A model generated the notes under the pieces. It searched no databases, was not told where the DNA came from, and saw only the letters and a list, made by a program, of their open reading frames with translations. DNA of 38,628 nucleotides. It comes from a virus. Its lineage: Duplodnaviria > Heunggongvirae > Uroviricota > Caudoviricetes. This document shows, piece by piece, positions 1 to 15,692 of this stretch. Numbering within the stretch: position 1 is the first letter of the stretch; the number at the start of each line of letters is the position of its first letter. The translations under genes and the position numbers were made by a program. Where the stretch lies: positions 1 to 38,628 of IMG/VR virus record IMGVR_UViG_2711768037_000009. One strand, written 5' to 3'.

Positions 1-259
1 TGAAGGTTCTGACAAACTGCTACGCCTGACGCTGGATCTCGGCGGCGAAAAGCGTAATGTCTTCTCCGGCATTCGTTCTGCCTACCCGGATCCGCAGGCA
101 CTGATTGGTCGTCACACCATTATGGTGGCTAACCTGGCACCACGTAAAATGCGCTTCGGTATCTCTGAAGGCATGGTGATGGCTGCTGGCCCTGGCGGGA
201 AAGATATCTTCCTGTTAAGCCCGGATGTCGGTGCTAAACCTGGCCACCAGGTTAAGTAA
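1..259 (+). CDS. metG: 3' end of methionyl-tRNA synthetase (C-terminal tRNA-binding domain); partial, start lies outside window
   Basis: Open frame from window edge to TAA at 257-259; translation ...[85 protein letters not shown] matches my recollection of the enterobacterial MetG C-terminus. Confidence 0.85.
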
Positions 260-279
260 TTAAGCAACCATTCTTCACA

Positions 280-306
280 ATGCCCGGCAATACGCTGGGC
301 ATTTTC
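280..306 (+). terminator. Intrinsic terminator of the metG-like gene
   Basis: Hairpin ATGCCCGG-caatacg-CTGGGCAT followed by TTTT, ~20 nt after the stop codon. Confidence 0.6.
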
Positions 307-341
307 ATATAGACACAACCCCTTCTGATTTACATATGCCT

Positions 342-356
342 AAAACAATTTGTTTT
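342..356. promoter_or_regulatory. Palindromic motif AAAACAATTTGTTTT (AAACA-N3-TGTTT family), copy 1
   Basis: Perfect 15-bp palindrome ~60 nt upstream of the 419 start; same motif recurs upstream of six other genes. Confidence 0.4.
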
Positions 357-418
357 CTGCATTTTGTTAATTGAGATAATAAGCCATATAAGAAAAAAAT
401 TGTTTCGGAGTGGTTGAA

Positions 419-718
419 ATGTTGAACATTACCCAAGCCTACCAGGTGGCATTGATCAGTTCATCTCATACATCAGAGGAAGATGCTCGCCGATTCATGA
501 TCGCAAGCAATGAGCTGGATTGGGTTTCGCAAATTGACGGCGGTTGTATTGTCCACGCAGGGTTACAGGATGATGTCTGGAAAGACAACTTGCGTCGATA
601 TGGTATATCCGAAGACGCAATTGCTAACATTCAGAAAGTACTTGATGCAGGTTTTGACTCCGTACATTTTGATTGTGGTGCGCTGGTCGTTGAAGGGCTT
701 GAGAGTTGGCAATGGTGA
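419..718 (+). CDS. Hypothetical small protein (99 aa)
   Basis: ORF track 410..718; first ATG at 419 preceded by GGAG at ~407-410; no recognisable domain. Confidence 0.55.
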   Translation: MLNITQAYQVALISSSHTSEEDARRFMIASNELDWVSQIDGGCIVHAGLQDDVWKDNLRRYGISEDAIANIQKVLDAGFDSVHFDCGALVVEGLESWQW

Positions 719-860
719 TCCGGCAATGGTGTCATACAAGATAACTGAGAATTTATTCTCAAAGAAGATAGGAAATGTGCTTGTAATGCAGTATCTGCTA
801 TGTGTTTAGGTTATGTTTGCTAAATGTTGATAATATATACACGCAATTTTATGTGATGGG

Positions 861-1430
861 ATGGATGTGATGGAAACCAATAACCGACATACAAAACCTT
901 TGAATAACATTTATGCGTGGATTTTAGCTTTTATTCCAATTTGCTTCGGCATTCCGAACGAAGAGTATGCAAATTATGCTGCATTAATTGGAAGTTTAGC
1001 TGCCATCGGATTATTAGTGGCTGACAGAATGGCGATTTCGGAATCCGGCTATGAGCCACCTGCTATTTTATGGGGAATAGTTCTCATGCCAGTCTACCTA
1101 TGGAAGCGCGCGACTATAACGAAGAGCAGCAGACTACCATTTATTATAGTCGTTGCCTTGATGGCTGGTCTTGTCTTCATTGTCATACCGAAACAGGAAG
1201 ATAGTGTCATTGAGGACGCAGCCTGCCCTGTTGTGACAACTATTCTGAAAGAACATAATGGTTCTACTGCGGCAAAATGCATCAAGGTTAAAATTGACGA
1301 CAAGGTAACTGATAAGTTCTACAGAGCAACTGCTACACTGGATAATGGTAATGATATAAACATAACACTGGAGCTTGCCGGTAGAGAGAAATTGTATGTC
1401 CGTGTGCCAGGTGTTTATTTGAACGATTAA
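861..1430 (+). CDS. Predicted multi-pass inner-membrane protein (189 aa), function unknown
   Basis: ATG start; three to four hydrophobic helices (AWILAFIPICFGI, AALIGSLAAIGLLVA, ILWGIVLMPVYLW, LPFIIVVALMAGLVFIVI) followed by ~90-aa soluble C-terminal domain. Confidence 0.6.
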   Translation: MDVMETNNRHTKPLNNIYAWILAFIPICFGIPNEEYANYAALIGSLAAIGLLVADRMAISESGYEPPAILWGIVLMPVYLWKRATITKSSRLPFIIVVALMAGLVFIVIPKQEDSVIEDAACPVVTTILKEHNGSTAAKCIKVKIDDKVTDKFYRATATLDNGNDINITLELAGREKLYVRVPGVYLND

Positions 1431-1564
1431 CGGATAAAAACATTGATAATGGCGGTCACAATTTGATTCTTTTCTATAAGAATCCGTTGATCGCCACTAC
1501 TCCCCTTCCATACCTGCAATCACATCCTTAAATATCAATAGGTTAACGTTGTTTATACAAATAA

Positions 1565-1582
1565 GAAAACAACTAAATAACA
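1565..1582. repeat. Direct repeat AAAACAACTAAATAACA, copy 1 (copy 2 at ~1795-1811)
   Basis: Identical 17-bp word found twice ~230 bp apart in the ORF-poor region. Confidence 0.5.
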
Positions 1583-1794
1583 GTTCAACGAAACGTCAAC
1601 GCTTTCTCCCGATTTGGTCTAAAAATTGACGTTTTCACACATCACTTCTTATACCCGTAATCTACGCAGCAGACAGCGCCACAGCGTCCAATTTTCACCA
1701 CAGACGCCCCAACACACTACCAACAAAAACACACGCTCAAAATCTCTCCCGTTGCGTTACACAACCATATAAACAACTTATTTTCAGGCATAAC

Positions 1795-1811
1795 AAAACA
1801 ACTAAATAACA
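1795..1811. repeat. Direct repeat AAAACAACTAAATAACA, copy 2
   Basis: Identical to the word at ~1565-1582. Confidence 0.5.
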
Positions 1812-1830
1812 CATATGCCATTCCCCAAAA

Positions 1831-1925
1831 CAACCAACCTCTTTATGGCAGGCTACCGAAAAGACCCACCTCTTCTCCCAGGCTACCGGACAACCAACCT
1901 AACTTTCACAGGCAATCCGAAAACA
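1831..1925. repeat. Iteron-like tandem repeats, cluster 1 (3 copies, ~30-bp period, core CCTCTT-N5-CAGGCTACCG)
   Basis: CAGGCTACCG at ~1849 and ~1879, degenerate CAGGCAATCCG at ~1909; CCTCTT/CCTAAC at ~1838, 1869, 1898. Confidence 0.5.
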
Positions 1926-2425
1926 TTCATACGCGCGATACCCACGACACGCCATTCCCCAAACAGCGAAGCAACACCTGAACCACTGAAACCCCAACGA
2001 AGTCTGTAACCGCAAGGATTCTCTCAATCCCAAAAGACACGAAACATAACAATCACGGGAAACGCCATTACCCAATACACGAACAACTACAAAAGCCTTT
2101 CACACGCACTCCAGACAAACAACTCAAACACAATAACGAAAGGAATCGCCCACCTGCCATTACTCCACACACGGAGAAGAACAATCACCAAAACGATGAG
2201 AACACCCCATAGAAGAACCACCGCAAAACGAACGAAACCACATACACCGACAGAGAGAACAACACACCCAATTCACCAACAGAATTAGTCGCCGTATAGA
2301 ACGTTCTGGAAGGAGTGAGCATTAACGCCTATAGAGAGGTTGAGACAGATAAAACATAACATGTATAGCGAAGAAGCCAGGTATGTATAACTAAGAAATA
2401 CACAACATGTATAAGCTGGGAGGGA

Positions 2426-2449
2426 AGGAGGGGTGTCGCCTCCTTTTTC
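2426..2449 (+). terminator. Intrinsic terminator ending a rightward transcript of the A+C-rich region
   Basis: AGGAGG-ggtgtcg-CCTCCT hairpin followed by TTTTT. Confidence 0.5.
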
Positions 2450-2496
2450 GTATTTATTCAACATCTTACCATCATCCCCCGTATCCCCTACGGTCA

Positions 2497-2700
2497 TCCT
2501 TCGGTCCATACAGGGAAAAGGCTGCATCCCGCTACAAAAACGGCTGGGTTGCCTTCGGGAAACGGTCGAGTTGCCTGTGTGGATTTCGGGAAAAGGCTCG
2601 ATGCCGGTTCAGGAACGGCGGCGTACCGGTATAGCGAGAGGGAGAGTTGCGGCTGGCCACCTGCAATGTTCGGGAAGAAGAGAGGCGCTCACGTGAAGGC
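2497..2700. other. GC-rich block with repeated TTCGGGAAA(A)GGCT-type motifs; candidate structured RNA or protein-binding array
   Basis: Motif variants at ~2510, 2553, 2583, 2669 and 2793; only overlapping six-frame ORFs without RBS. Confidence 0.3.
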
Positions 2701-2955
2701 GAACCTACTTACCGCTGGATTCCCTCTGAATGCCCAGTTACAGCGTAATTGTGCCAGACAGCCAACGGGTCACAATCGATTTCAGTAGGTTTTCGGGGAG
2801 ATGATTATTCTGCCCACCAGCCATCTTCGGCCACTAAATCAGAATAATGTAAAAGTGTACTCTGTACTGAACCTGAAAACTCACTGCCAAAACCACATTC
2901 ACCGGAATAAAATCCTTTTTCGCCTGTGCGTTATTGCGATAATAACACCATTAAG

Positions 2956-2968
2956 AAAACATCTTGTT
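2956..2968. promoter_or_regulatory. AAACA-TCT-TGTTT palindrome just upstream of the RBS of the 2982 gene
   Basis: Member of the AAACA-N3-TGTTT family; coordinates +/-2. Confidence 0.35.
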
Positions 2969-2981
2969 TAAGGATTGCTTT

Positions 2982-3311
2982 ATGTTTGCAAATATCGACA
3001 TCAACCAAATTAAGAAATTGACTCAAAAAGAGTTTGACCAGTTTTATGAGCTGGAAGGTTGGTCTTCCACTCTGATTAATTCAAGATGGGTGCTGGAGCT
3101 GATGACTCGTGATGATGCACCTGCTTTGATGATTAGCGACCTGGGTGATGATGCTGACTTTATGGATATGAGCGAATTTTGTGTGGACACATACAACCGC
3201 AGCCAGAAGTACTACTTCACATGCGATAGCGAAAATGACGTGATTTCTAAGGTCTATCTTCACCTCGTCCAGCATTGGGACGTTCAGGAGTTTCTTGAGG
3301 TATTCGCGTAA
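2982..3311 (+). CDS. Small acidic protein (110 aa), function unknown
   Basis: ORF track 2964..3311; ATG at residue 7 preceded by AAGGA; about 21 Asp+Glu against 8 Lys+Arg. Confidence 0.6.
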   Translation: MFANIDINQIKKLTQKEFDQFYELEGWSSTLINSRWVLELMTRDDAPALMISDLGDDADFMDMSEFCVDTYNRSQKYYFTCDSENDVISKVYLHLVQHWDVQEFLEVFA

Positions 3312-3441
3312 CCCCAACCAAAGCCAGCATTGCTGGCTTAATTTCATCTGTAGCCGCAGGGAAGAACCTGCATATCGCTCATGCGCCTGATCAATATGCT
3401 TTGTAGCCGTTTTCTTACTGGTATTATTTACGCAATTGAGA

Positions 3442-3454
3442 AAACAAGTTATTT
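3442..3454. promoter_or_regulatory. AAACA-AGT-TATTT motif (one mismatch) upstream of the 3466 gene
   Basis: AAACA-N3-TGTTT family member overlapping the 5' leader. Confidence 0.3.
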
Positions 3455-3465
3455 ACGAGGTTGTG

Positions 3466-3777
3466 ATGGATAAGTCACTGATACTGGGGCTGGACAAAGA
3501 CCAGAAGAGAAAAGAGAAGCCTGCACTGGTTGCTCAATTAACTTTGCTGGACATCGTTGCCAATGGAACCTCTATTCGTCTGTTCCGTGAAACAGCGGTG
3601 TCTTTCGATAAAAACACTTTTACTCGTTATGTAATGAATGTTCGTCGCCAGCGTGGAAAAGGCTGGATGGCATTTCAAAGAATGTGGCCGGAACATCAGC
3701 TGGAACTGGCTTTGATGGAAGTAAACCGCGTGGCCCAGCAAGAAATTCAGAGAGCATCAGTGATGGCAATAGCCTGA
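3466..3777 (+). CDS. Hypothetical protein (103 aa)
   Basis: ORF track 3436..3777; ATG at 3466 preceded by GAGG. Confidence 0.6.
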   Translation: MDKSLILGLDKDQKRKEKPALVAQLTLLDIVANGTSIRLFRETAVSFDKNTFTRYVMNVRRQRGKGWMAFQRMWPEHQLELALMEVNRVAQQEIQRASVMAIA

Positions 3778-3811
3778 TAATGTGCAAGTGGTAATTAGTC
3801 GACAGTACGAC

Positions 3812-3839
3812 AGCCCCGCCATCCTTACGGGGCTTTTTT
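3812..3839 (+). terminator. Intrinsic terminator
   Basis: AGCCCCG-ccatcctta-CGGGGCT hairpin followed by TTTTTT. Confidence 0.7.
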
Positions 3840-3903
3840 GTATTGTAGGTGCATACCTATGACTATAAAATAGAAAAATAACTAAGACACTACGGAGAGT
3901 GAA

Positions 3904-4299
3904 ATGACCGTTAAACGCGAAAAACTGACAGTTGATGTTTACTATGCCTCTGAAACCGCCGAAGGTAAGAATGTGGCAAAAATCACCGTTGTTACGTACA
4001 ACACCGAAACTGGTGCCGAAGTACAGGCCAGTACGATCGTGCGTAAAGGTGATGCCTCCGGCGGAGAGTACGCGACTCAATACCAGTCCATTCTCGATGC
4101 AACTGACCCGCTGCTGCTGAAAATCGAGAACTACTTCCGCCAGGTTGATGAAGAGGTGTTTGAAACCATGATGAGTATGGTTAATTCCGTATTCACCTCC
4201 AGTCTGAACACCAGCACCACCTGGATTGGTCAGTACGGCCTGCGCATTACCTCTGGCATTCCTGCCGACACCTTAATCCCTGAAAGCGTATTCGCTTAA
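3904..4299 (+). CDS. Hypothetical protein (131 aa)
   Basis: ATG start preceded by GGAGAG; bracketed by terminators. Confidence 0.65.
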   Translation: MTVKREKLTVDVYYASETAEGKNVAKITVVTYNTETGAEVQASTIVRKGDASGGEYATQYQSILDATDPLLLKIENYFRQVDEEVFETMMSMVNSVFTSSLNTSTTWIGQYGLRITSGIPADTLIPESVFA

Positions 4300-4308
4300 T
4301 CCTCTTTG

Positions 4309-4336
4309 AATGGCGCGTAAACCGCGCCATTTTATT
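4309..4336 (+). terminator. Intrinsic terminator
   Basis: ATGGCGCG-taaac-CGCGCCAT hairpin followed by TTTATT. Confidence 0.75.
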
Positions 4337-4344
4337 ATGCCCGA

Positions 4345-4357
4345 TAACAATTTGTTT
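4345..4357. promoter_or_regulatory. TAACAATTTGTTTT motif, near-identical to the copy at 342-356
   Basis: AACA-ATT-TGTTT followed by the same TCTGC as at 357-361. Confidence 0.4.
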
Positions 4358-4523
4358 TCTGCCTTATCTGATTTGTGAAAATGATTTCACTGAAGCAACT
4401 TAATAAGGAAACCATCATGGACTTGATATCTATATCGAGACGCAGCCTAAAAACGATCTGAATAACGAGGCATCCAGAAAGCAGGTTGCTTACTTCCGTA
4501 AGTTCAATGCGCTCGTTGGGTGG

Positions 4524-4790
4524 ATGGAGCGCAACGTAGGTGAAGTCGAAAATTGTGAGCTTTTAGAATTAACGATGAATGACATTTGTCTTCTGAAAGC
4601 TCATTTGATGCACATAAACGAAAGCAATTGCGAAGAGTACTTGCCTACTCGGGAAGGTTTTTTCTTCGGCAGTCAGGAGTACGACGAAGGTTACTGGCAT
4701 GACGTGGATAAGCTGAAAAAACTTGTGGAAGACCTGATCAGGAACCACGACTTTCACAATAACAGACTGACCTTCTGCGCCTGGTGGTAA
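4524..4790 (+). CDS. Hypothetical protein (88 aa); true start uncertain
   Basis: ATG at 4524 with poor SD spacing; same frame is open upstream to ~4407 without an ATG; a strong RBS (AAGGA) at ~4405 serves a 14-codon ORF in another frame. Confidence 0.5.
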   Translation: MERNVGEVENCELLELTMNDICLLKAHLMHINESNCEEYLPTREGFFFGSQEYDEGYWHDVDKLKKLVEDLIRNHDFHNNRLTFCAWW

Positions 4791-4793
4791 ATA

Positions 4794-4937
4794 TGGGCGA
4801 TTTCAAGAAACGCCTGAAGGAAAGAGCCGAGATGGTCAGAAAGCAAAACGCATCTTCTGTCATCAGATACGCAAGGCTGTTTAGTCGCAACAACAAATCA
4901 GTTGAGGAAAAGATCCTTAGCGTAATCGGACGATAAT
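4794..4937 (+). CDS. Possible small basic protein (47 aa)
   Basis: ATG 4 nt after the previous stop, GGTGG upstream; below the ORF-track size cut-off. Confidence 0.3.
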
Positions 4938-4942
4938 TATTA

Positions 4943-4972
4943 AGGCCATCAGCATTGGTGGTCTTAAATGAC
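4943..4972. repeat. Degenerate copy of hairpin element AGGCCAYCAG...TGGTGGYCTTAAATGAC
   Basis: ~30-bp similarity to the perfect hairpin at ~5483-5514. Confidence 0.35.
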
Positions 4973-5110
4973 TTTTAATAACCGAAGGTTAGTTTGAAAC
5001 CTGGCTATCAACTTCCAGAACCTTTCTTGTGTATTCAGCCTGTATTAACTTCTTTTATGCCTTATCTACACTGCGATAATTACACCAACAAGAAAACAAG
5101 AGGAAAGCAG

Positions 5111-5308
5111 ATGAAAACTATTACTCAAGTCCAGCAAATCTGGGCGCAGCTGGCAAATGAGCCTGTGGATAACAATCAGCAGCTTGAGCGCGCATTTCAC
5201 CATTTTGAAGCCGGTGACAGCATCATTGACGTGTGGGTGTGGATCGACGGGCTGTGTCCAGATATCACCGTTGCCCAGTTGCAGCAGGTGGGGAGGCACG
5301 ATGACTGA
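5111..5308 (+). CDS. Hypothetical protein (66 aa)
   Basis: ORF track 4994..5308; ATG at 5111 preceded by AGGAAAG. Confidence 0.5.
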   Translation: MKTITQVQQIWAQLANEPVDNNQQLERAFHHFEAGDSIIDVWVWIDGLCPDITVAQLQQVGRHDD

Positions 5309-5350
5309 TTTCACCATTACCCCAAAAGCACAAAATGTATTCCTTGAATC

Positions 5351-5515
5351 ATGGCTGAATTTGCCGCATTAAGTGAGAGTATTACGATGGCAAAATTGAC
5401 CAGAGCGCAGGAGCATGACCTGCGACGCGCAATTTATGATCTTGAAAGAGTTCGTTGCAGCACATCGAAAGCAATGAGATATAGGCCACCAGTTAACGCT
5501 GGTGGCCTTAAATGA
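5351..5515 (+). CDS. Possible small protein (42-54 aa; ATG at 5351 or 5387)
   Basis: Open frame ending in TGA inside the downstream hairpin element; weak RBS. Confidence 0.25.
   Translation: MAEFAALSESITMAKLTRAQEHDLRRAIYDLERVRCSTSKAMRYRPPVNAGGLK
5483..5508 (+). other. Perfect 10-bp-stem hairpin AGGCCACCAG-ttaacg-CTGGTGGCCT; terminator-like but no U-tract
   Basis: Seen directly; related words at ~4943 and ~6200. Confidence 0.45.
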
Positions 5516-5527
5516 CCATCCTGTTCC

Positions 5528-5604
5528 CCGCAGGCTAAAAACACCAACCTCTTACCTCCAGGCAACCGACAAACCTACCTGTTCCCGTCCGGCTACCGCA
5601 ACTT
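5528..5604. repeat. Iteron-like tandem repeats, cluster 2 (3 copies, same family and orientation as cluster 1)
   Basis: GCAGGCTAAAA, CCAACCTCTTACCTCCAGGCAACCG, CCTACCTGTTCCCGTCCGGCTACCG. Confidence 0.5.
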
Positions 5605-5651
5605 ACCACTTTGACGCCTTATTCGTACAACGATAATTAACACCAGCAAGA

Positions 5652-5664
5652 AAACAATTTGTTA
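5652..5664. promoter_or_regulatory. AAACA-ATT-TGTTA motif upstream of the 5685 gene
   Basis: AAACA-N3-TGTTT family, one mismatch. Confidence 0.35.
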
Positions 5665-5684
5665 TTTACGATAAGGAATTAATC

Positions 5685-6167
5685 ATGAATTTTATCGCTA
5701 CTGTAAACGCACCCGCACATGGCAATATCGCAGTAACGTTCTCTGACATTGAAAAACGAGTACTTGGTGCATGGCGCGACAATGAGACGGTAGAACTGTC
5801 AGCACAAGAAAAATGCATTATTGCACGTGACATCATTGGTAATCGTCGTTACTCGCGGGTATTTGAGAAAGCGTATGTGGTAAATTCTGGATTCGGAACG
5901 TTCGTCTTTCCGGTGCGCTCCGGGCGATTCTGCCAGTCCAAGCTGATTGAGTTCGCTACGCAGATTTCTGTCTGGATTAAAACTCAATCGTCGTTCAAAT
6001 TTTCCGACGATGAAGCAGTATCGCAGGGGATGCAGATCGCCAACAATGCGATTAAATGCAAAAACATTACGTATGCCGCTGGCGTTGACACATGGAAACT
6101 GTTTTGCGCTAACTTTATGCTGAATGTATACGCAAGCAACCGCATCCACATCCTTGATGGCGTGTAA
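5685..6167 (+). CDS. Hypothetical protein (160 aa)
   Basis: ATG preceded by AAGGA at 8-nt spacing; followed by a terminator. Confidence 0.65.
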   Translation: MNFIATVNAPAHGNIAVTFSDIEKRVLGAWRDNETVELSAQEKCIIARDIIGNRRYSRVFEKAYVVNSGFGTFVFPVRSGRFCQSKLIEFATQISVWIKTQSSFKFSDDEAVSQGMQIANNAIKCKNITYAAGVDTWKLFCANFMLNVYASNRIHILDGV

Positions 6168-6175
6168 CTGAGAAG

Positions 6176-6199
6176 AGGGCCAGAAACGGCCCTTTCTCT
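6176..6199 (+). terminator. Intrinsic terminator
   Basis: AGGGCC-agaaac-GGCCCT hairpin followed by TTCTCT. Confidence 0.55.
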
Positions 6200-6251
6200 A
6201 TAGCCACCAGTTGCCGCAGGGAAATTTTCAGAAACGGCAAGGAACGCATTC

Positions 6252-6560
6252 ATGAGCCGACGGGAAACGGCCAGGATTTTTTCGGGAAACGGCGGCATTC
6301 GCCTTGATGTAGAAAAACATCGGGAAGCTGGTGGAATCCAACCAGCGGCTGTCGGACAGGTGAGCGGGGAAAATTATGATGACTTTCGTCGCCCGAGACA
6401 TCCAGATTTCTTTCGTAGCGTAATCACATACGTGATTAATTGGTGTGATTATGTGAGAAATCACGCGCACATAATACGCGAGCGGATACAGAACAAAACA
6501 AAATGCCGATCCGCGCCGACAATTAAACGCGGATCACATAGCAAGACAAAAAGCCAATGA
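6252..6560 (+). CDS. Doubtful ORF (102 aa, Arg-rich) in a region dense with inverted repeats
   Basis: ATG with AAGGA upstream, but atypical composition and overlapping palindromes. Confidence 0.25.
   Translation: MSRRETARIFSGNGGIRLDVEKHREAGGIQPAAVGQVSGENYDDFRRPRHPDFFRSVITYVINWCDYVRNHAHIIRERIQNKTKCRSAPTIKRGSHSKTKSQ
6420..6540. promoter_or_regulatory. Cluster of inverted repeats (ATCAC/GTGAT words, ATTATGTG-N12-CACATAAT, GATCCGCG-N12-CGCGGATC); candidate operator or origin
   Basis: Several dyad symmetries within ~120 bp in the convergent intergenic region. Confidence 0.3.
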
Positions 6561-6758
6561 TTAACTATGCGCTATAGCGCAATATAACGCGTTTTAAGCG
6601 CATTAATGTGTTAAGTAATGGGTATGTACTGGCAAGGATATAAAAGCGCGTCTATGGCGTTATTTTGGTGCTTGTTTTTATGTTGTTGGAGTGAGTCAAA
6701 GACAATAAAAAACGCGCTAATGATGGCGCGTTATGGTGGGAGTATTGGAAACGAAAAA

Positions 6759-6777
6759 AGCGCCCACTATGGGCGCT
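6759..6777. terminator. Bidirectional intrinsic terminator
   Basis: AGCGCCC-actat-GGGCGCT hairpin flanked by A-run upstream and T-run downstream. Confidence 0.65.
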
Positions 6778-6782
6778 CGATT

Positions 6783-7013
6783 TTATTTGTGTAAACTGAT
6801 TTTAAATCCCATTTCTACAAACGCTTTTAACATTAAAAATATATCAGCGTCGTTCACGTCTGCTTTTTTTCGCTCCTGGTCGCTCAATAAGTCAATTTTG
6901 CGCGTCGTTTCATCTATAAGCTCGACTGCGCGCCCAGCGTAACCAGCGATCCCAGCGATGCGATTAACATAATATTCATTATGGACGTTAACGCCAGCGA
7001 TAAGAACAAACAT
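6783..7013 (-). CDS. Small protein (76 aa), unknown
   Basis: ATG preceded by perfect SD AAGGAG at 8-nt spacing. Confidence 0.6.
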   Translation of the reverse strand: MFVLIAGVNVHNEYYVNRIAGIAGYAGRAVELIDETTRKIDLLSDQERKKADVNDADIFLMLKAFVEMGFKISLHK

Positions 7014-7034
7014 GATTAAGCTCCTTAAAAAAAA

Positions 7035-7238
7035 TTAAATAGAATTTTGAAGTTTTCCGATTAATGCGCTTAAACGTAAGTATTCACGTTTGCGCTTGCA
7101 ATCTCGCTTGCTGTTAAGTAAATCAGAAAACGTAAAATTTAATTGGTCGCGTTGCGCGATCAAATCATCGATTAATTCCAGTTTATAAGCGCGATACTTT
7201 GCGCGATATTCCGCGCGGATCTTGTCATAGCTGACCAT
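7035..7238 (-). CDS. Small basic coiled-coil protein (67 aa), unknown
   Basis: ATG preceded by AAGGAG; 21-nt gap to the downstream gene. Confidence 0.6.
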   Translation of the reverse strand: MVSYDKIRAEYRAKYRAYKLELIDDLIAQRDQLNFTFSDLLNSKRDCKRKREYLRLSALIGKLQNSI

Positions 7239-7254
7239 TTTAAAGCTCCTTTAA

Positions 7255-7273
7255 AGCGCCCATAGTGGGCGCT
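7255..7273. other. Hairpin AGCGCCC-atagt-GGGCGCT, inverted copy of the 6759-6777 hairpin
   Basis: Same stem, loop is the reverse complement; no U-tract. Confidence 0.5.
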
Positions 7274-7285
7274 TGATTCCATTAA

Positions 7286-7936
7286 TTACGCTTTGAAAGC
7301 ATCAGCTAAATAATTGTAGAAATCATTTTTAATGAAGCGATATTGCTGAGTACCAGCTTTTGCACTCCCAGCTCCTTTGACTTTTTCAACAAGTCCAAGA
7401 CGTTCGCAAAGATTGATCAACTGGTTGGCTTGAGTATAGCCAGCGTCCAATTTAATTTCGCACGCTTTTTTAGCTTCATTCATTAAATCGAAAACAGCGC
7501 CATTGGTGAACGTGTCGATCTCGTCGTTAATCATATCGATTAAAGCGAATACACGAGATCCAGACATATCAGCGACGGAATAAACACATTTTCCAGCTTT
7601 AATGGATTTAACCAAATAAACCAGTTTTTCCAGTGAATAACTATTAGTCATAGCGTCACGAAAAAATACTTCTGGCGCTTGTTTGCTTGCTTTAATCGCA
7701 TAGTAGAAAACAGAGCATAATTTTTCGTCTTCTACAGCGTTTACAACGTTGTTGATGAAGTAAGCAAGTTTAGTGGTCGCAGCTTGCATATTTGCTTTGT
7801 CTGCTTTAGTGTGCGTACCATTTTTATAATGTTCGTTATATGTTTGAGTTGCCAGATCTGCTTTTTCGCGCAGCTCGTCGGATACAATGGAAGCAGCTTC
7901 AATGATGGATTTTTTAGAAATGATAATGTTAGCCAT
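7286..7936 (-). CDS. Hypothetical protein (216 aa)
   Basis: ORF track 7286..7945; second ATG has AAGGA at proper spacing. Confidence 0.6.
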   Translation of the reverse strand: MANIIISKKSIIEAASIVSDELREKADLATQTYNEHYKNGTHTKADKANMQAATTKLAYFINNVVNAVEDEKLCSVFYYAIKASKQAPEVFFRDAMTNSYSLEKLVYLVKSIKAGKCVYSVADMSGSRVFALIDMINDEIDTFTNGAVFDLMNEAKKACEIKLDAGYTQANQLINLCERLGLVEKVKGAGSAKAGTQQYRFIKNDFYNYLADAFKA

Positions 7937-8197
7937 GTTGAACATCCTTACGAAAAATTAAAATGAATTTATTTTTTGCTGTCGTTAGCCAGCTCGCTTT
8001 CGACGAGTTCAATTATCGATACGTGAAAAAAGATTGCAAGTGTTTTTTTTAAATTTTTTGCAGGGGTGAAAGTCCTAGAAATAAAAGCGAGATCCTCGAA
8101 GGTGTTCCCTAAATAAATAATAAATTCCGGCTTTTGACCTTATATATTTATACGGGGAGAATTGAATGAGTGTTAAACGAAGGGCATGTAAAATAAT

Positions 8198-8215
8198 AAC
8201 CGGACTTAGCCGGTT
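8198..8215. other. Hairpin AACCGG-acttag-CCGGTT with extended AT stem; possible terminator after the 174-aa gene
   Basis: Inverted repeat seen directly; weak U-tract. Confidence 0.3.
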
Positions 8216-8231
8216 ATTATCCTTATAGAAA

Positions 8232-8756
8232 TTAAAACGGAAGGATTCGTTCAACCCAATCGAAGAAAACAAGTATTTTTCTTCCGTCTTTCAACTTAAG
8301 AGTGACCTGACAAGCATCAACGCCTCTTGATACCCCTTCTATTTCACGACCGTCTGCCATGTAGACCCTTATAGATTGGTCGTTTTGATAAGCCTTGCGA
8401 CATATCGCAAAAAAGTCACGGCGTGATGGCTGATTGTCAACATAGTCTGGATGTATTGTTAGCCTACCTTTGAACTCGCGAGCAATGCCATCGATTACAC
8501 CTGATTCAATTGTGCTAATGCGCTCAAGTGGGAGTCTTATACGATTTTCTTTATCATATGGAAGCGGGCATAAATCTAGCTTATTGCGGGAAGGCATTGT
8601 CCCCTGAACGTACATGCAAAACACCTGACCGTCTTCAAGCGTGACTCTTACAGGAATGTTGTTCTTCCGCCAGAACATAAGTATGTTTTCAGCATGTTCG
8701 TAGTCTCGCGGCCAGACTTCAGCCGGTATGCCGTAGGTGATGTCCAATGTTCTCAT
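8232..8756 (-). CDS. Hypothetical protein (174 aa) with two similar beta-rich segments
   Basis: ATG start; start overlaps the stop of the upstream gene; no domain recognised. Confidence 0.6.
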   Translation of the reverse strand: MRTLDITYGIPAEVWPRDYEHAENILMFWRKNNIPVRVTLEDGQVFCMYVQGTMPSRNKLDLCPLPYDKENRIRLPLERISTIESGVIDGIAREFKGRLTIHPDYVDNQPSRRDFFAICRKAYQNDQSIRVYMADGREIEGVSRGVDACQVTLKLKDGRKILVFFDWVERILPF

Positions 8757-9352
8757 TCTGATACTCTTAGAGGTGTTTTCAGCAACCCAAATTTAAATTC
8801 TTTGTTACCAACGACAAAGAAGGGAACCTCAACATAGATTTTTTTATCGACGGATTTAGAGTTCGCTGTTTTCTGTATGTCACGAATGATACGTTTTGAG
8901 ATATTTTCATCGATAAACAATACCTTTCCACTTGTATTCCCTTCAGCCTTGGCGTAAGTAACGATAGGCTCTTCATTGCCAACCCTAATGTTTACTTGGC
9001 AACCTGTTGTAGCCATTTCATCACAGTAAAGTGTGCCGTCTTGAACTTCTAAAACAATTCCAGATGGCTTCATGGCTTCGTCAGAGCTTACATTAACGTT
9101 TTCTGGTACAGCGGTCCCGTTAATTTGCAACCGTAATCTTTCTTTTCCTCCATTAAGTATTGTTTCTTCTGCGTTGTCTGAGAATCTGAACCAAACTGGC
9201 TGATTCAGACCTCGTGATTTGTATTCTACTACGTCTTCGGAGGTAAACATGCTGTACGTTTTTTGCATGTCAGAGACGAAATCTGATAATGCGTTGGCGG
9301 AAAACGCCGGGAGGTATATACAAGCAAGGAGTAACGAAAGTTTCATTTTCAT
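8753..9352 (-). CDS. Predicted secreted protein or lipoprotein (signal peptide MKMKLSLLLAC...)
   Basis: ORF track 8753..9367; first ATG at 9352; hydrophobic N-terminus with a lipobox-like LLAC, then AFSANA. Confidence 0.6.
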   Translation of the reverse strand: MKMKLSLLLACIYLPAFSANALSDFVSDMQKTYSMFTSEDVVEYKSRGLNQPVWFRFSDNAEETILNGGKERLRLQINGTAVPENVNVSSDEAMKPSGIVLEVQDGTLYCDEMATTGCQVNIRVGNEEPIVTYAKAEGNTSGKVLFIDENISKRIIRDIQKTANSKSVDKKIYVEVPFFVVGNKEFKFGLLKTPLRVSE

Positions 9353-9367
9353 ATCATGATAATCCAA

Positions 9368-9856
9368 TTATTTAACATCACACTTTCTAAGTTTTTCTAT
9401 TTGTTCTAATTTTTCATGATCGTCATTTAGATTTCCTTCGACTATCTCCGTTTCAAGTTTGCTGATTAGCATGTTAAGTGCGTTGTAGTTATTGCATTTT
9501 ACTTTGTAGGCGTAGTATGACCTTGTCCCTGGTTTTTGTACACCCATATCATTAAAGTTAGAGCTTAAAGTATAACCTTCAAGTTCAACCCCTTTTATTG
9601 TTGGAAGAATTATATTTAATGGTTCTAATTTAAATGGGTAGATATAAATATGTGATATGAAGTACTCTTCTGAAGAGATTTTCTTCATGTCTTTTGTGAT
9701 TGAAACTGAATATTTATGGTTGCGAGTGATATAAAATTTTGTACATTTGTACGGCTCTAAGTTGAATAGATAATATTTGTCTTTAAAAAGAACATCTTTT
9801 CCATGTGATATTTTATGTCGTAAAGAGTTAATTATTTTGTTTATAGAAATACTCAT
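9368..9856 (-). CDS. Hypothetical protein (162 aa), very AT-rich gene
   Basis: ATG start; composition visibly more AT-rich than flanking genes; own upstream regulatory region. Confidence 0.6.
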   Translation of the reverse strand: MSISINKIINSLRHKISHGKDVLFKDKYYLFNLEPYKCTKFYITRNHKYSVSITKDMKKISSEEYFISHIYIYPFKLEPLNIILPTIKGVELEGYTLSSNFNDMGVQKPGTRSYYAYKVKCNNYNALNMLISKLETEIVEGNLNDDHEKLEQIEKLRKCDVK

Positions 9857-9949
9857 CTACAGTATCCGACCTTAGTTATCAATTGAAAAGCCTACAAATA
9901 TCGTTCAGCCAATCAAGAAATTTTTTCAGCCGGAGATGTGTACTTCAAA

Positions 9950-9971
9950 AAATGTGATGAATGTCACATGC
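9950..9971. promoter_or_regulatory. CRP-like binding site AAATGTGA-tgaatg-TCACATGC
   Basis: Matches TGTGA-N6-TCACA in both half-sites; ~100 bp upstream of the 9856 start on the minus strand. Confidence 0.45.
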
Positions 9972-10001
9972 GGGTGCTCTCATACACCTGCATGTAGACT
10001 A

Positions 10002-10568
10002 TTAATTATTCAATAATCTATATTTTCTTTTGATTAAATCTTCACCTTTTTTGGTGAACGCAAAACCAAATTGCGATTTTTTGTTTAGACGAAGGACTCT
10101 GTTATCCAACGCATCGATTGATGGAATCAATGTTTGATCATCTATCCAATTAAGCAGAGTAAGAAAGTTCAGCAGCCTCAACGTTGTTGTGCGAAGCTCT
10201 TTCGATATATTTTCAATGCTGGCAATTCGTCTTTGTTTTTTCTCAGGTGGTACAGATAATTGTTCTTGAGGTTTCGAGAATAGATAATCAATTTCGTTTG
10301 CTGCATCGAATGATATGTGTGGCGTAATTTTTCTAAAAAAGCCTTTCGCTGACTCACTTGATAATAAACCAGATCTATTCATATCGTTTGTTATTCTGTA
10401 CAGGAGTGGACTGTGTTTCATTTCAGGATAACGTTGATAAAAGTTAAGCAATTCAAAAGCAGCATTAGCACCAACAAGAAAATCAGAAGGATCGCTGACT
10501 TTCCAGAAAGAATGATTTTTCTTAGCGCCAGTGGTGTCAACAAATGATAATTCTTTTAACCAACTCAT
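10002..10568 (-). CDS. Hypothetical protein (188 aa)
   Basis: ORF track 10002..10601; ATG at residue 12 preceded by AAAGGAG. Confidence 0.6.
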   Translation of the reverse strand: MSWLKELSFVDTTGAKKNHSFWKVSDPSDFLVGANAAFELLNFYQRYPEMKHSPLLYRITNDMNRSGLLSSESAKGFFRKITPHISFDAANEIDYLFSKPQEQLSVPPEKKQRRIASIENISKELRTTTLRLLNFLTLLNWIDDQTLIPSIDALDNRVLRLNKKSQFGFAFTKKGEDLIKRKYRLLNN

Positions 10569-10633
10569 GATGTGCTCCTTTCTAACAAGTGAGCACATCA
10601 TAGAATTAGTAGATAGGGGGTAAATATGAAATG

Positions 10634-10912
10634 TTACGGCAACCTGCTCAGTATTTCCTCTAAATCTTTTTTTGTCATATTGGAGTTTTCATAGATGCGC
10701 ATGATTTTCTCACGCGTCTTAGCGGAAACCCCAACGGCAGATGTGACTTTGTCAAATTCAGCCATAGTCATCGTCTCCAGAATGGCATTGATAACTTCAG
10801 CCTTAGACATCTTGATTTTTTTCTCTTTGAGTTTTATTTGAAATTTTCCAAGTTTTTCATTGGCCTTATCAGACAATGCCACTTGGCAATAAGTTGTTTT
10901 CTTTTCGCTCAT
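10634..10912 (-). CDS. Small protein (92 aa), possible ribbon-helix-helix type DNA-binding protein
   Basis: ATG start 3 nt downstream of the helicase stop; Lys-rich N-terminus; fold call is weak. Confidence 0.5.
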   Translation of the reverse strand: MSEKKTTYCQVALSDKANEKLGKFQIKLKEKKIKMSKAEVINAILETMTMAEFDKVTSAVGVSAKTREKIMRIYENSNMTKKDLEEILSRLP

Positions 10913-10914
10913 AA

Positions 10915-12474
10915 CTAATCTCGTTTCAGAACTCTAAAATCGAATGCGCCATCAATAGGCAATACACCTTCCGCAAAGCCAGGTGTGGTGTCGATGATGT
11001 GTTTTCGCTCATAAGAGTGAGACAACAGATATTTGTTGCTAATGTCAATAAAATCAGTGATAAAACATACGTTTGCCTGATTCTTCTTGGCTCGTAAGCC
11101 ACGACCGACACGCTGTCTCATTTCAACTTCTGCTTTCCCACCACCAGCAAGAATGACCGCACCAACGCTTGGCACATCAACACCAACATCCAGAATAGTC
11201 GAGCCTATTAAAACATCTATTTCACCAGATGCTAAACTGTTCAGCTTTGCTTGCCTTGTCGTCTGGTTAGATTCACCATAGATGAAATCAACTCTAAGAC
11301 CTGACTCCTTCATCATCTCCATCAGGATTTGCCCGTGGCGTTTAAGACGAACCAGAGTCATGCAGTTGAGTGAATGTTGTTTATAAAGCAATGCCTCGCG
11401 CACTATGGCCTCATTACGTCCCAAATTATACACGATCCCCAACTGATAAGCCTTTTGGTAGGCGGTGCTCATACCAACTCTAAAATTGAGGTGTTTGTTG
11501 GCAAGTTCGGCCTTGATTCTGGCCTCGTCTGGCTTGTAGGCAACTTTATGATAAAGGAAGTACGGCTTTGCCAGAATGCCTCGATCAATCAGGTACTTTT
11601 CTGTGACTTTAATTTCAATTCGCCCGGCCACAGCCATCAGACGCATGTTGGCTTCTGTAGAATCCTTCATGAACGGCGTGGCTGTAAGCGCCAGACGATA
11701 GTCTGCGTTCACACATAATCTGGCAATGTCATAGAAATTAGAACCTGAAGACTCATGCGCCTCTTCCAGAATAAGCAGAGATACACTTGAAAGGAAGCGT
11801 TTCACCAAGTCCCGACGTTTGAGGTGGTAGCTCTTCTTATCTGGAGTTGCATCGCGTGGTGGCTCTTCAAGGAAACTTGCCAGAGTTTGAACTGTAGCGA
11901 CGTTGATATGTCGTGATACCTGGAACTCACCCGAGCCAATTACTCCAACCTCTTGGTCCTTTAACCACGGTTCGCCATTTTCGGCGCGGTAGTCGATGGA
12001 TCTCTGGAAGTTTTCGGCCATTTGAAACATCAGAACAGAGCGGGTTGTTAAAAATAATGTCATTCGACCGATACGTGCAGCTGCTTTGCAGGCAACGTTA
12101 GATTTCCCGCCACCAGTAGCGATCTGCGCAATCATCATTCCCTCTCGAACCAGTGTTTCTACTGTCTGATCTTGGTACGCATAATCAGGGTTGTATGGAA
12201 ATGGGTTAACCGCCGGATTTGGTTTACCCAGCGCCGGGGCTTTGTCTTTGCGGATATGAACACATTTGATGCCCGCCTTGTTCAAATTAGCCGCCACGGG
12301 CTTGGCAAAGCCAGCAGGGAACGAGTTTTTGCTCCAGTTGAACATTGTGCTTGTGCCCTTCCAGTCGCCAGCCTCGACTTCGTAGCTCAACATTTGCTGC
12401 ACCAGTTGCTTTACCTTGTCATCTGCGCCAGAAATAAGCGCATTTACTGCGTTAGATACAATCCGAACAGTCAT
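10915..12474 (-). CDS. Superfamily-2 (DEAD/DEAH-box type) helicase, 519 aa
   Basis: Walker A ATGGGKS, motif II LILEEAHE, motif III LTATP, motif VI QRVGRGLR; GAGG SD before the ATG. Confidence 0.85.
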   Translation of the reverse strand: MTVRIVSNAVNALISGADDKVKQLVQQMLSYEVEAGDWKGTSTMFNWSKNSFPAGFAKPVAANLNKAGIKCVHIRKDKAPALGKPNPAVNPFPYNPDYAYQDQTVETLVREGMMIAQIATGGGKSNVACKAAARIGRMTLFLTTRSVLMFQMAENFQRSIDYRAENGEPWLKDQEVGVIGSGEFQVSRHINVATVQTLASFLEEPPRDATPDKKSYHLKRRDLVKRFLSSVSLLILEEAHESSGSNFYDIARLCVNADYRLALTATPFMKDSTEANMRLMAVAGRIEIKVTEKYLIDRGILAKPYFLYHKVAYKPDEARIKAELANKHLNFRVGMSTAYQKAYQLGIVYNLGRNEAIVREALLYKQHSLNCMTLVRLKRHGQILMEMMKESGLRVDFIYGESNQTTRQAKLNSLASGEIDVLIGSTILDVGVDVPSVGAVILAGGGKAEVEMRQRVGRGLRAKKNQANVCFITDFIDISNKYLLSHSYERKHIIDTTPGFAEGVLPIDGAFDFRVLKRD

Positions 12475-12513
12475 AAACCTCTTTCCTTAGTGCCTTTTGT
12501 ATGTTATTTGGCT

Positions 12514-12527
12514 ATTATAATAAGTAA
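12514..12527. promoter_or_regulatory. TATAAT -10-like element within the ATAATAAGTA motif, in the divergent region between the helicase and ParB-like genes
   Basis: GCTATTATAATAAGTAAGTAACTACTTAG; TATAAT readable on both strands. Confidence 0.4.
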
Positions 12528-12556
12528 GTAACTACTTAGTGGAATGTAGCAATAAA

Positions 12557-14787: not shown

Positions 14788-14792
14788 TCGAC

Positions 14793-15683: not shown

Positions 15684-15692
15684 GGATTTGCC

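Follow-up and report, generated by a model that had tools for sequence, protein, structure and literature searches.

The question raised by this locus is why a short near-palindrome recurs ahead of gene after gene, and whether it works in DNA or in RNA. The window (the whole stretch of DNA analysed, 38,628 nucleotides) had earlier received a sequence-only reading, which proposed a shared cis-element near gene starts for one dimeric regulator, either a DNA operator for early promoters or an RNA hairpin in 5' leaders. The core motif is a 13-bp dyad, AAACAA-N-TTGTTT, and the fuller form, AGA-AAACAA-N-TTGTTT-A, is a near-palindrome of 13-16 bp that appears to be undescribed in the literature. All seven copies listed by that reading are present (Table 1), and the near-18-nt identity it noticed between two of them holds over 17 nt, 344-360 being the same as 4346-4362 (AACAATTTGTTTTCTGC). 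Its placement of the copies 15-60 nt upstream of a start codon was roughly right, the measured gap from site end to ATG being 11-66 nt. It overlooked a degenerate copy at 393-405, two half-sites (5091-5099 and 1564-1572) and a weak copy at 1771-1783, and the range it gave, metG to terS, was too narrow because the motif is also present outside that stretch. The degenerate site lacks a C that is present in a 98.6% identical relative (AGAAAACAAATTGTTT). At the half-site at 5091-5099 the SD GAGGAAA takes the place of the right half, and the preceding 5047-5080 is a decayed copy of the cassette at 4349-4382.

Table 1. Motif copies, associated promoter elements and candidate binders in the window
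Feature	Coordinates	Strand	Sequence	Listed 13-bp copy	Context
Inverted (A-type) site	343-358	-	AAACAATTTGTTT+TCT	343-355, AAACAATTTGTTT	reads AGAAAACAAATTGTTT on the minus strand
Extended -10	372-380	+	TGAGATAAT		DUF5983 gene promoter (ATG 419); sites 343 and 393 on either side
Forward (B-type) degenerate site	390-405	+	AAAAAAATTGTTT		
Half-site	1564-1572	+	AGAAAACAA		C/A-rich non-coding stretch begins here; regulon membership uncertain
Extended -10	2935-2943	+	TGCGATAAT		
B-type site	2954-2969	+	AGAAAACATCTTGTTT	2957-2969, AAACATCTTGTTT	10 nt past -10; then SD, ATG 2982
Extended -10	3419-3427	+	TGGTATTAT		
B-type site	3439-3454	+	AGAAAACAAGTTATTT	3442-3454, AAACAAGTTATTT	11 nt past -10; ATG 3466
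A-type site	4345-4360	-	TAACAATTTGTTT+TCT	4345-4357, TAACAATTTGTTT	3' of terminator 4312-4340; 16 nt upstream of -10
Extended -10	4374-4382	+	TGTGAAAAT		
Extended -10	5072-5080	+	TGCGATAAT		
Half-site	5091-5099	+	AGAAAACAA		10 nt past -10; ATG 5111
Sigma70-type promoter	5611-5637	+			-35 TTGACG 5611-5616, -10 GATAAT 5632-5637
B-type site	5649-5664	+	AGAAAACAATTTGTTA	5652-5664, AAACAATTTGTTA	11 nt past -10; ATG 5685
FljA-family protein	8232-8756	-			candidate RNA-level binder; two tandem Sm/Hfq-like domains
Two ParB-N-domain proteins	12539-13905	+			candidate binders
Winged-helix protein	15693-15959	+			candidate binder; 88 aa, Cyrano CYRAN_123 homologue
terS-leader site 1	16075-16090	+	AGAAAACAAGTTGGTT	16078-16090, AAACAAGTTGGTT	
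terS-leader site 2	16100-16115	+	AGTAAACAAGTTGTTT	16103-16115, AAACAAGTTGTTT	25 bp from site 1

The window belongs to a phage-plasmid of the SSU5/pSLy3 type, ~108 kb in size, with a metG of its own. A near-identical plasmid (98.6% identity to the window; NZ_AP042587.1) is circular and 108.5 kb long, and on it apbC, humD and about 30 phage-type genes lie upstream of metG. The copy at 343 had been taken to place the left boundary of phage-type DNA within 80 bp of metG. However, no prophage/chromosome junction with host DNA on one side of this site was found: metG and the DNA upstream of it lie within both NZ_AP042587.1 and phage Cyrano, where the same MetRS is annotated. Since metG is carried by the phage-plasmid itself, the 343 copy marks no boundary. 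The cluster of small genes in this element is mosaic among relatives.

The weight-matrix scan and shuffle enrichment test that the sequence-only reading had suggested placed the motif far above chance. There were 3 exact matches in the window vs 0.11 expected (0 of 100 shuffles reached 3) and 9 matches with at most one mismatch vs 2.9 expected (0 of 100 shuffles), and the adjoining 46 kb of the 98.6%-identical plasmid held 17 matches vs 3.4 expected. A 16-nt weight matrix gave 22 matches above 15 bits vs 0-1 in shuffles. Over the whole 108.5 kb plasmid every match with at most one mismatch was intergenic, as were 22 of the 27 with at most two mismatches, although intergenic DNA makes up only 13%. 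The 17 strong sites on the near-identical plasmid all lie between genes, belong to transcription units of the main direction and in no case precede a minus-strand gene. Four of these 17 are inverted, as are, by our reading, roughly one in five of all contexts. Klebsiella, Salmonella and Nissabacter relatives carry the same sites, and so does Yersinia pestis pMT1. A restriction to early promoters did not hold up, as terS, nrdB, dnaB, a parA-like gene and cobT-like genes have sites ahead of them as well.

Most forward sites fill almost all of the short 5' leader and adjoin the SD. They follow an extended -10 (TGnGATAAT) at a distance of 10-11 nt and have their centre near +14, whereas inverted copies precede such an element, ending 16 nt upstream of it, with their centre near -38 and TTGTTT always 19 nt from the -10 hexamer; the A-type site at 343-358 likewise ends 16 nt upstream of the -10 hexamer and is centred at about -38. 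The promoters with inverted sites are partly paralogous and thus not fully independent evidence. Among 63 distinct site contexts from relatives, 30 have a -10 (at least 4 of 6 bases, with A2 and T6) 8-12 nt before AGA, vs 6.7% of control positions; in 28 of these 30 the distance is 10-11 nt, and 22 of the 30 have the TG extension. About half of the 63 contexts have no recognisable -10 at the canonical distance. Several unrelated promoters carry paired sites around a single -10, 51 bp apart (50 bp in the window, where the 393 site is one base short). TG at -15/-14 with hexamer A at -11 and T at -7, the sigma70 extended -10 signature, is present at each of the extended -10 elements in Table 1, and a generic -35/-10 scan detected none of these predicted promoters because their -35 is weak. 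A fixed distance to an overlapping promoter core or start site was seen for forward (28 of 30) and inverted copies, but not for those before terS, nrdB, dnaB and the parA-like gene, which lie in leaders without an evident sigma70 promoter; for terS-leader site 1, a convincing -10 at the usual distance was not found.

In the position table of the 63 contexts, dyad positions 1-6 and 9-13 are near-invariant and position 7 is free, all central bases occurring among the sites, so that conserved half-sites surround a free centre as in a palindromic operator. Among the flanking positions, position 8 varies most (T in 53 of 63). The motif is also asymmetric: the left half with AGA is better kept than the right half, the flanks are unequal (AGA before, A after TTGTTT) and half-sites exist. 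An alignment of 48 distinct sequences upstream of ORF5685 shows variation in the spacer and the central base but conservation of the -35, the -10 and the site; in relatives that site (5649-5664) forms a perfect dyad around a central base that varies. The two sites upstream of terS are kept although the DNA ahead of them and between them has diverged, and in one lineage a 25-bp deletion fuses the two.

These patterns bear on whether any dedicated trans-acting factor is needed. The motif could belong to a reused promoter/leader module, with a C/A-rich unstructured initially transcribed region and an A/U-rich translational enhancer, that spread by duplication and recombination. In line with this, the promoter cassettes are homologous over 35-60 bp, the leaders are unstructured, the repeats recombine (the deletion between the terS sites and the mosaic small-gene cluster), and the motif presumably resembles the A/U-rich T7 gene 10 leader AGAAATAATTTTGTTTAAC. 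However, a 9+5 core stays invariant across relatives whose proteins share 57-70% identity while adjacent promoter and leader bases drift, a free central base in a fixed dyad is typical of a protein site, and there are inverted sites upstream of promoters as well as sites where no -10 exists. This makes a module acting only in cis improbable.

The RNA-hairpin option has in its favour that the motif is self-complementary and located in leaders, but the minimum free energy of the 16-mer RNA is 0 kcal/mol and the predicted folds of four leaders, which are no better than those of shuffles (z-scores -0.3 to +0.9), do not contain the hairpin. Direct inspection of one- and two-mismatch variants revealed no compensatory double changes, every departure from the dyad breaking pairs singly, and no Rfam match was found in 1-17000. 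Positions 6 and 8, the would-be loop bases, are conserved. A hairpin is thus barely credible.

Control at the RNA level could also proceed without a hairpin. Forward copies may be single-stranded leader elements, A-rich AGAAAACAA plus U-rich UUGUUU by the SD, bound by the FljA-like tandem-Sm protein so that translation initiation is blocked or the mRNA destabilised, as with FljA on fliC. The protein matches the FljA family (PF03614, E 5.7e-81) over its full length and is conserved in 12 of 12 SSU5-type phage records, Klebsiella ones included, and in pMT1. Since Klebsiella pneumoniae has no flagella, the protein probably has its target within the phage. FljA acts post-transcriptionally on fliC mRNA (PMC2652032). 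Without exception the forward sites run in the direction of transcription, and in the unstructured leaders they adjoin the sequence immediately 5' of the SD or take its place, a position that fits RNA-level control equally well. However, inverted copies lie upstream of the -10, 3' of terminators and outside the mRNA, and yet show the same conservation pattern as forward copies. In addition, single-stranded RNA binding needs no exact dyad symmetry, and the spacing is tied to the -10 rather than to the ATG, from which the site centre lies a variable 18-72 nt. The fliC leaders have only the 8-mer CAAGTTGT in common with the motif and score -2.9 (Salmonella) and -5.5 (E. coli) bits, which 5-10% of random chromosomal windows equal. 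An RNA target for this protein therefore seems unlikely, though it is the chief rival of a DNA operator.

The reading favoured here, with confidence somewhat short of even, is that the motif is a DNA operator for one dimeric sequence-specific regulator encoded by the phage-plasmid. It is favoured because of the dyad with its free centre, the fixed promoter geometry, the inverted copies outside the mRNA and the paired sites, and because of the phylogenetic footprints at ORF5685 and terS and the intergenic, main-direction placement of all 17 strong sites. The shared element and the dimeric regulator on DNA thus survive from the sequence-only reading, supported by the variable centre, the fixed -10 spacing and the 51-bp pairs, while its hairpin, its limitation to early promoters and its boundary do not. 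From these sites we infer protein binding and repression as follows. One dimeric phage-plasmid protein would recognise AAACAA-N-TTGTTT, with the asymmetric AGA flank on the promoter-proximal side. The commonest setting is a sigma70 promoter with an extended -10 (TGnGATAAT or TGnTATTAT) and a weak or absent -35, with the site at about +8 to +20, inverted at about -44 to -32, or at both places with a separation of 51 bp (about five helical turns). Once bound, a dimer, or a pair of dimers bridging both sites, would exclude RNA polymerase from the promoter or lock it there, so that one protein may switch off 15 or more dispersed transcription units. The promoter-less copies (terS twice, nrdB, dnaB, parA-like) may be roadblocks or reflect another mode of the same regulator. 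The directional features (AGA flank, trailing A, stronger left half and free half-sites AGAAAACAA with SD) are not predicted by a simple symmetric dimer.

The best candidate for the binder, a tentative and rather doubtful one, is the winged-helix protein, whose family-restricted gene is the last before the terS sites. The Cyrano genes reported to be expressed in lysogens (PMC9928086) do not include this one, so that the protein, if it is the binder, would have a role in lytic growth and not in lysogeny maintenance. A CI-like HTH protein is another candidate, but its presumed operators, two copies of TCAnnTATGATATA, differ from the motif and are unique to its gene's own intergenic region, which means that another factor would be needed for the dispersed promoters. 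In a further variant of the DNA-operator reading the binders would be the two ParB-family proteins, with the copies acting as dispersed parS-like or KorB-OB-like sites through which plasmid partition, or CTP-dependent sliding, would be coupled to promoter silencing. The first protein is alignable to Spo0J over residues 13-160, which we read as probably reaching past the N-terminal domain into the DNA-binding region, and the second matches KorB weakly (E 0.035), with a weak match to KorB structure 8qa8. One site lies upstream of the parA-like ATPase, and we take the 13-bp 6-1-6 architecture and the -38 position to resemble KorB OB class I operators. However, the motif is unlike TTTAGCSGCTAAA or TGTTNCACGTGAAACA (KorB OB / ParB parS consensus), the ParB genes lie in a packaging-proximal operon away from the parA-like gene, and ParB binding to the dyads is purely putative, making this variant highly improbable.

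Several known systems share parts of this arrangement. In phage P1, the C1 repressor acts at dispersed operators, which are asymmetric 17-mers (ATTGCTCTAATAAATTT). In both phage-plasmids one regulator (here proposed) has many operators spread across about 100 kb, each of which overlaps a promoter of its own, but here the sites are dyads arranged in a defined geometry relative to an extended -10, and no C1 homologue or ATTGCTCTAATAAATTT-type sequence was seen. The 'stoperators' of mycobacteriophage L5 gp71, reportedly described by Brown et al. 1997, are asymmetric 13-mers always in one orientation, some of which lie away from promoters and block elongation. As in L5, each genome has about 20-30 short sites, which lie in short intergenic regions, run in the direction of transcription and are in part promoter-distant; however, the core here is a dyad and a distinct class (4 of 17) is inverted upstream of promoters. 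On RK2/IncP plasmids, KorB-OB sites are dispersed 13-bp 6-1-6 palindromes, some centred at about -39, bound by a ParB-family protein. The present dyads are similarly built and dispersed and two ParB-family genes are present (as putative binders), but the sequence differs and many sites lie downstream of the -10 at about +14.

T4 RegA is a small regulator that acts on short A/U-rich leaders by the SD of many genes. The A/U-rich leaders beside the SD and the true FljA-family gene recall both RegA and Salmonella FljA (PMC2652032). However, fliC leaders lack the motif, and DNA is indicated by the inverted copies, which are not transcribed, and by a spacing locked to the promoter. The T4-type 'promoter early stem-loop' mobile regulatory cassettes, reportedly described by Arbiol et al. 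2010, are promoter-plus-terminator modules without an operator-like dyad. They share with the present cassettes highly similar promoter modules that precede many small accessory genes and act as recombination points, but here the conserved core persists where the rest of the cassette does not. Finally, lac O1-type operators are centred at +11, and gal and deo have paired operators around a promoter. The present sites likewise place a putative operator just downstream of the start and a second one upstream on the same helical face, which by analogy suggests cooperative binding, although here the two lie just 51 bp apart and many promoters of one replicon share the arrangement.

All seven copies of the AAACA-N3-TGTTT dyad listed in the sequence-only reading were found where it had placed them. 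In the window, AAACANNNTGTTT occurs three times exactly (0.11 expected) and nine times with at most one mismatch (2.9 expected), and no shuffle reached three or nine, respectively. The whole of a near-identical reference plasmid, pOkiPb01698_2 (NZ_AP042587.1), was assembled for the motif scan. There, AAACAANTTGTTT with at most two mismatches gave 27 matches, 22 of which fell in the 13% of the plasmid that is intergenic, and with at most one mismatch every match was intergenic. The weight-matrix scan and shuffle test named in the earlier reading placed the motif far above shuffled expectation: a 16-position matrix returned 17 sites above 20 bits on this plasmid, all intergenic, and 22 matches above 15 bits compared with 0-1 in shuffled genomes. 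The motif is not limited to the metG-terS stretch, since further sites lie elsewhere on the reference plasmid, including upstream of nrdB, a TerB-family gene, an HD-domain operon, humD, a parA-like ATPase gene, dnaB, a cobT-like gene and a DUF1281 gene. No site precedes any minus-strand gene of the reference plasmid, a set that includes the FljA-like/helicase block, the CI-like repressor, apbC and repB. An exact 17-mer scan of IMG/VR gave, among the matches listed, SSU5-like contigs mixed with unrelated ones.

The copy at 343 had also been taken as the left end of the phage DNA beside metG. This is wrong, because metG and the DNA upstream of it are part of a plasmid, and a prophage boundary at metG is thereby ruled out. 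The first 6 kb of the window match the circular, 108,543-bp E. coli reference plasmid at 98.6%, and the window matches Escherichia phage Cyrano, the SSU5-like phage-plasmid of LF82, at 95%. On the reference plasmid, apbC, a humD/umuD-like gene and about 30 phage-type genes precede metG and the window's genes follow it, and the same MetRS is annotated in Cyrano. Chromosomal metG, in all 5,426 E. coli genomes, aligns to only the first ~260 nt of the window at 90-95% identity. The 38.6-kb window is not chromosome with an adjoining prophage at metG. The phage-plasmid metG is full length and lies beside apbC. Host-like genes of metabolism and replication are unusually numerous on this element, which in addition to metG has nrdAB, thyX, a dfrA51 dihydrofolate reductase, dnaE and four tRNAs. 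Downstream of the 4345 promoter, the first gene is broken in the window into a short ORF and a second ORF where the 98.6% relative has a single 468-nt CDS; it has likely suffered a frameshift or become a pseudogene here.

The conserved unit is longer than earlier noted and is directional: A-G-A-AAACAA-N-TTGTTT-A. In a position table of 63 distinct contexts from relatives, which is biased by site selection (positions 1-13 were pre-selected at no more than one mismatch, the flanks were not) and whose counts overstate independence because paralogy or orthology links many of the contexts, the three-base 5' flank reads A in 55, G in 52 and A in 57 contexts, and the base 3' of the dyad is A in 50. 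Within the dyad, position 6 is A in 62 of the 63 and position 8 is T in 53, and position 7 is free (26 A, 13 C, 17 G, 7 T). The most constant part of the unit is AGA with the left half, and two places carry this part alone with a Shine-Dalgarno (SD) sequence directly after it.

Relative to candidate promoters, the sites stand in forward, inverted or paired arrangements, and some copies have no convincing -10. In forward, B-type copies, AGA starts 10-11 nt past a -10 hexamer that is usually TG-extended. A -10 lying 8-12 nt before AGA was present in 30 of the 63 contexts compared with 6.7% of control positions; 28 of these 30 were at 10-11 nt and 22 had the TG. If transcription starts about 7 nt past the -10, the B-type dyad would lie at roughly +8 to +20. 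In inverted, A-type copies, 16 nt separate the end of AAACAAnTTGTTT-TCT from the extended -10 that follows, which puts the centre near -38; these copies are downstream of terminator hairpins and outside the mRNA of the following gene. Both types occur at one promoter, 51 bp apart centre to centre, at 343/393 (50 bp in the window, where one base of the 393 site is lost), at G23703/23751 and at several unrelated promoters of relatives. That the whole is a promoter/leader cassette acting in cis only is rather improbable. A generic sigma70 scan detected none of these promoters, which it misses because their -35 elements are weak. By eye, a sigma28 promoter (CGATAA resembles the fliC -10) was rejected, there being no TAAAGTTT at the right distance, and so were antisense promoters for the A-type sites, whose minus-strand -10 candidates are poor or misspaced (16-17 compared with 10-11 nt).

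Coordinates of motif copies, candidate binders and neighbouring features. Positions are those of the window unless prefixed L or G; L001 and L004 are pieces of the reference plasmid and L283 is Y. pestis CO92 pMT1.
Feature	Position	-10 element or remark
B-type site	390-405	TGAGATAAT 372-380
B-type site	2954-2969	TGCGATAAT 2935-2943
B-type site	3439-3454	TGGTATTAT 3419-3427
B-type site	5649-5664	GATAAT 5632-5637
A-type site	343-358	372-380
A-type site	4345-4360	4374-4382
A-type site	L001 9989	
A-type site	L001 16261	
terS pair	16075-16090, 16100-16115	no convincing -10; 25 bp apart
nrdA-nrdB spacer site	L001 8180-8260	no convincing -10; outside window
Sites before dnaB and parA-like gene		no convincing -10
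AGA and left half alone	5091-5099; L001 10040	
pMT1 dyads	L283 28498-28535, 37412, 37904	
88-aa winged-helix gene	15693-15959	
Two ParB_N genes	12539-13905	
FljA-like gene	8232-8756	minus strand
TCAnnTATGATATA pair	L004 18040-18090	outside window
metG	1-259	with upstream part in L001
Broken gene	4417-4790	ATG 4417, then ORF 4524-4790; intact at L001 24431-24898
CDS-free stretch	1431-2981	
C/A-rich stretch	1500-2300	
Half-site AGAAAACAA	1564-1572	
22-nt repeat	1561, 1790	
Terminator-like hairpin	2422-2448	
~30-bp tandem repeats	1833-1923, 5537-5602	
Inverted repeat before terS sites	15984-16038	
terS leader hairpin	16118-16145	

Upstream of ORF5685 (the gene with an ATG at 5685), 48 distinct sequences were compared, with protein identity down to 66%. 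These keep a -35 (TTGACG or TTGGAC), an invariant CGATAATTA and AGAAAACAA-n-TTGTT, and vary in the promoter spacer and the central dyad base. Upstream of terS both sites are retained, the intervening DNA and would-be -10 region have diverged, and in one lineage a 25-bp deletion merges the two into a single perfect site. A Nissabacter-type element has the same sites in the same places and an FljA-like protein that is 57% identical. In 50 kb of Y. pestis CO92 pMT1 there are four motif matches compared with 0.14 expected; they lie ahead of its homologues of terS and ORF5685. Also retained on this plasmid are the FljA-like gene and, at the position of the winged-helix gene, a gene for 88 aa.

The reading preferred here, to which slightly less than even confidence is attached, is that one dimeric DNA-binding regulator, encoded by the plasmid, uses the dyad as its operator. 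Bound at extended -10 promoters, such a regulator would exclude or trap RNA polymerase from operator positions that would lie near +14 and near -38, over the weak -35; lac O1 has a comparable position just downstream of the start. Paired sites five helical turns apart would permit cooperative binding, and one protein would co-regulate at least 15 dispersed units. None of the transcription-factor consensus sequences of KdgR (5-1-5), PurR, IHF, GntR-type proteins and 434 (ACAA-N6-TTGT) is known to fit the 5-3-5/6-1-6 spacing. Two ParB_N proteins, also candidates for the binder, are encoded in the window, the first of which aligns to Spo0J over residues 13-160, and dispersed sites of a ParB/KorB-like kind are a distinctly improbable explanation of the motif.

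The best candidate binder for the proposed operator is the 88-aa winged-helix protein, an assignment that is itself doubtful. Its gene is not listed among the lysogen-expressed genes of Cyrano (PMC9928086), and the protein may therefore serve as a switch in the lytic phase, shutting early promoters and acting at terS, and not as a maintenance repressor. The 128-aa CI-like HTH protein is Cyrano CYRAN_45, which is expressed in lysogens (PMC9928086). It was rejected as the binder because its own 247-bp divergent region has no motif copy and instead holds two copies of a different 14-mer, TCAnnTATGATATA, which lie 21 bp apart between its gene and a 70-aa gene and occur nowhere else in the genome. 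These are probably immunity operators. The recognition helix of the CI-like protein was uninformative on motif binding.

The sequence-only reading had offered an RNA hairpin as the alternative to a DNA operator. As RNA, the 16-mer is unfolded (minimum free energy of 0 kcal/mol), and the hairpin does not appear in the predicted folds of four natural leaders, which fold no better than shuffles. Variants break single pairs (TAACAA.., ..TTGTTA, ..TTATTT, ..TTGGTT), no doubly compensated variant was found among one- or two-mismatch matches, and Rfam gave no match in positions 1-17000 of the window. The hairpin is therefore unsupported by folding, covariation or Rfam, and is highly improbable. An unstructured RNA-level element is possible for the forward copies, which form nearly the entire short leader beside the SD, and a leader target of the FljA-like protein is unlikely, though the main rival. 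However, an RNA-level element leaves the inverted, untranscribed copies unexplained, the spacing is fixed to the -10 and not to the ATG (site centres lie 18-72 nt from it), and the fliC leaders of E. coli and Salmonella, when scored, had no significant motif match.

The FljA-like protein, a homologue of the FljA-family "flagellin repressor", is predicted to have two tandem Sm/Hfq-like domains and no HTH. Its gene belongs to the core set of SSU5-type phage-plasmids, those of Klebsiella and Y. pestis pMT1 among them, a distribution suggestive of a phage-internal RNA target. It is unlikely that this tandem-Sm (Hfq-fold) protein runs a post-transcriptional regulon across the whole phage-plasmid with the motif as its recognition element; forward copies would then be bound as RNA in 5' leaders and inverted copies perhaps as single-stranded DNA or antisense RNA. 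If so, FljA, the Salmonella repressor in flagellar phase variation, would have been domesticated from an ancestral family of phage translational-control proteins.

Several other features lie near the sites. A 1.55-kb stretch has no annotated CDS in the near-identical plasmid and no Rfam match, and part of its plus strand is strongly C/A-rich and G-poor, with a GC skew of -0.4 to -0.57 and an AT skew of up to +0.63. A half-site stands at the start of the C/A-rich part, a 22-nt repeat lies within it and a terminator-like hairpin follows it; the whole could be a long unstructured ncRNA, a rut-like region or a protein-binding array. Tandem repeats with the consensus ACCAACCTCTT..CAGGCTACCGAAAA stand ahead of promoters; upstream of ORF5685 the number of copies differs among relatives, an iteron-like trait. 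Between the second terS site and the terS SD is a conserved hairpin, GAGCGC-N6-GCGCTC followed by TGTGTGTTTT. Compensatory changes in relatives (CGC/GCG to CAC/GTG) give it the look of an attenuator or terminator of the terS leader. An inverted repeat, with an A/T-rich loop between arms of 17 nt (CCTGCTTCTGTATATAT ... ATATATACAGAAGCAGG), directly precedes the terS sites. It is kept in relatives and could either terminate the operon before it or be a packaging signal. The nrdB site sits inside a longer self-complementary stretch, cTTGTTTAAACAAacaAGATAACAACTTGTTTAAACA, in which an everted copy (TTGTTT-AAACAA) adjoins the normal one.

Clinical E. coli, Salmonella and Klebsiella commonly harbour phage-plasmids of the SSU5/pHCM2/pSLy3/pKpn type, which carry resistance genes (dfrA51 and CTX-M-15 are examples) and are related to Y. 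pestis pMT1. A 16-nt signal that is very well conserved and recurs at about 17 promoters or leaders is a direct experimental handle: it defines a regulon, allows promoter prediction in the SSU5-type family and, as the duplex AGAAAACAAGTTGTTTA, can serve as bait for regulator pull-down, so that regulation of a clinically widespread element becomes directly testable. The motif also points to two putative family-wide regulators, the 88-aa winged-helix protein and the FljA-like tandem-Sm protein. None of four 13-mer variants was found in the searchable literature, nor was any description of how the ~100 kb of lytic genes in SSU5-type phage-plasmids are silenced or timed, and a recent review gives no regulatory mechanism for the SSU5 group. 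The dispersed operators of P1 C1, the stoperators of L5 and the KorB regulon of RK2 are multi-site regulatory systems that the present one resembles in function, but by sequence, symmetry or orientation rules the motif falls outside all three classes. The system is a putative multi-site operator regulon of a phage-plasmid.
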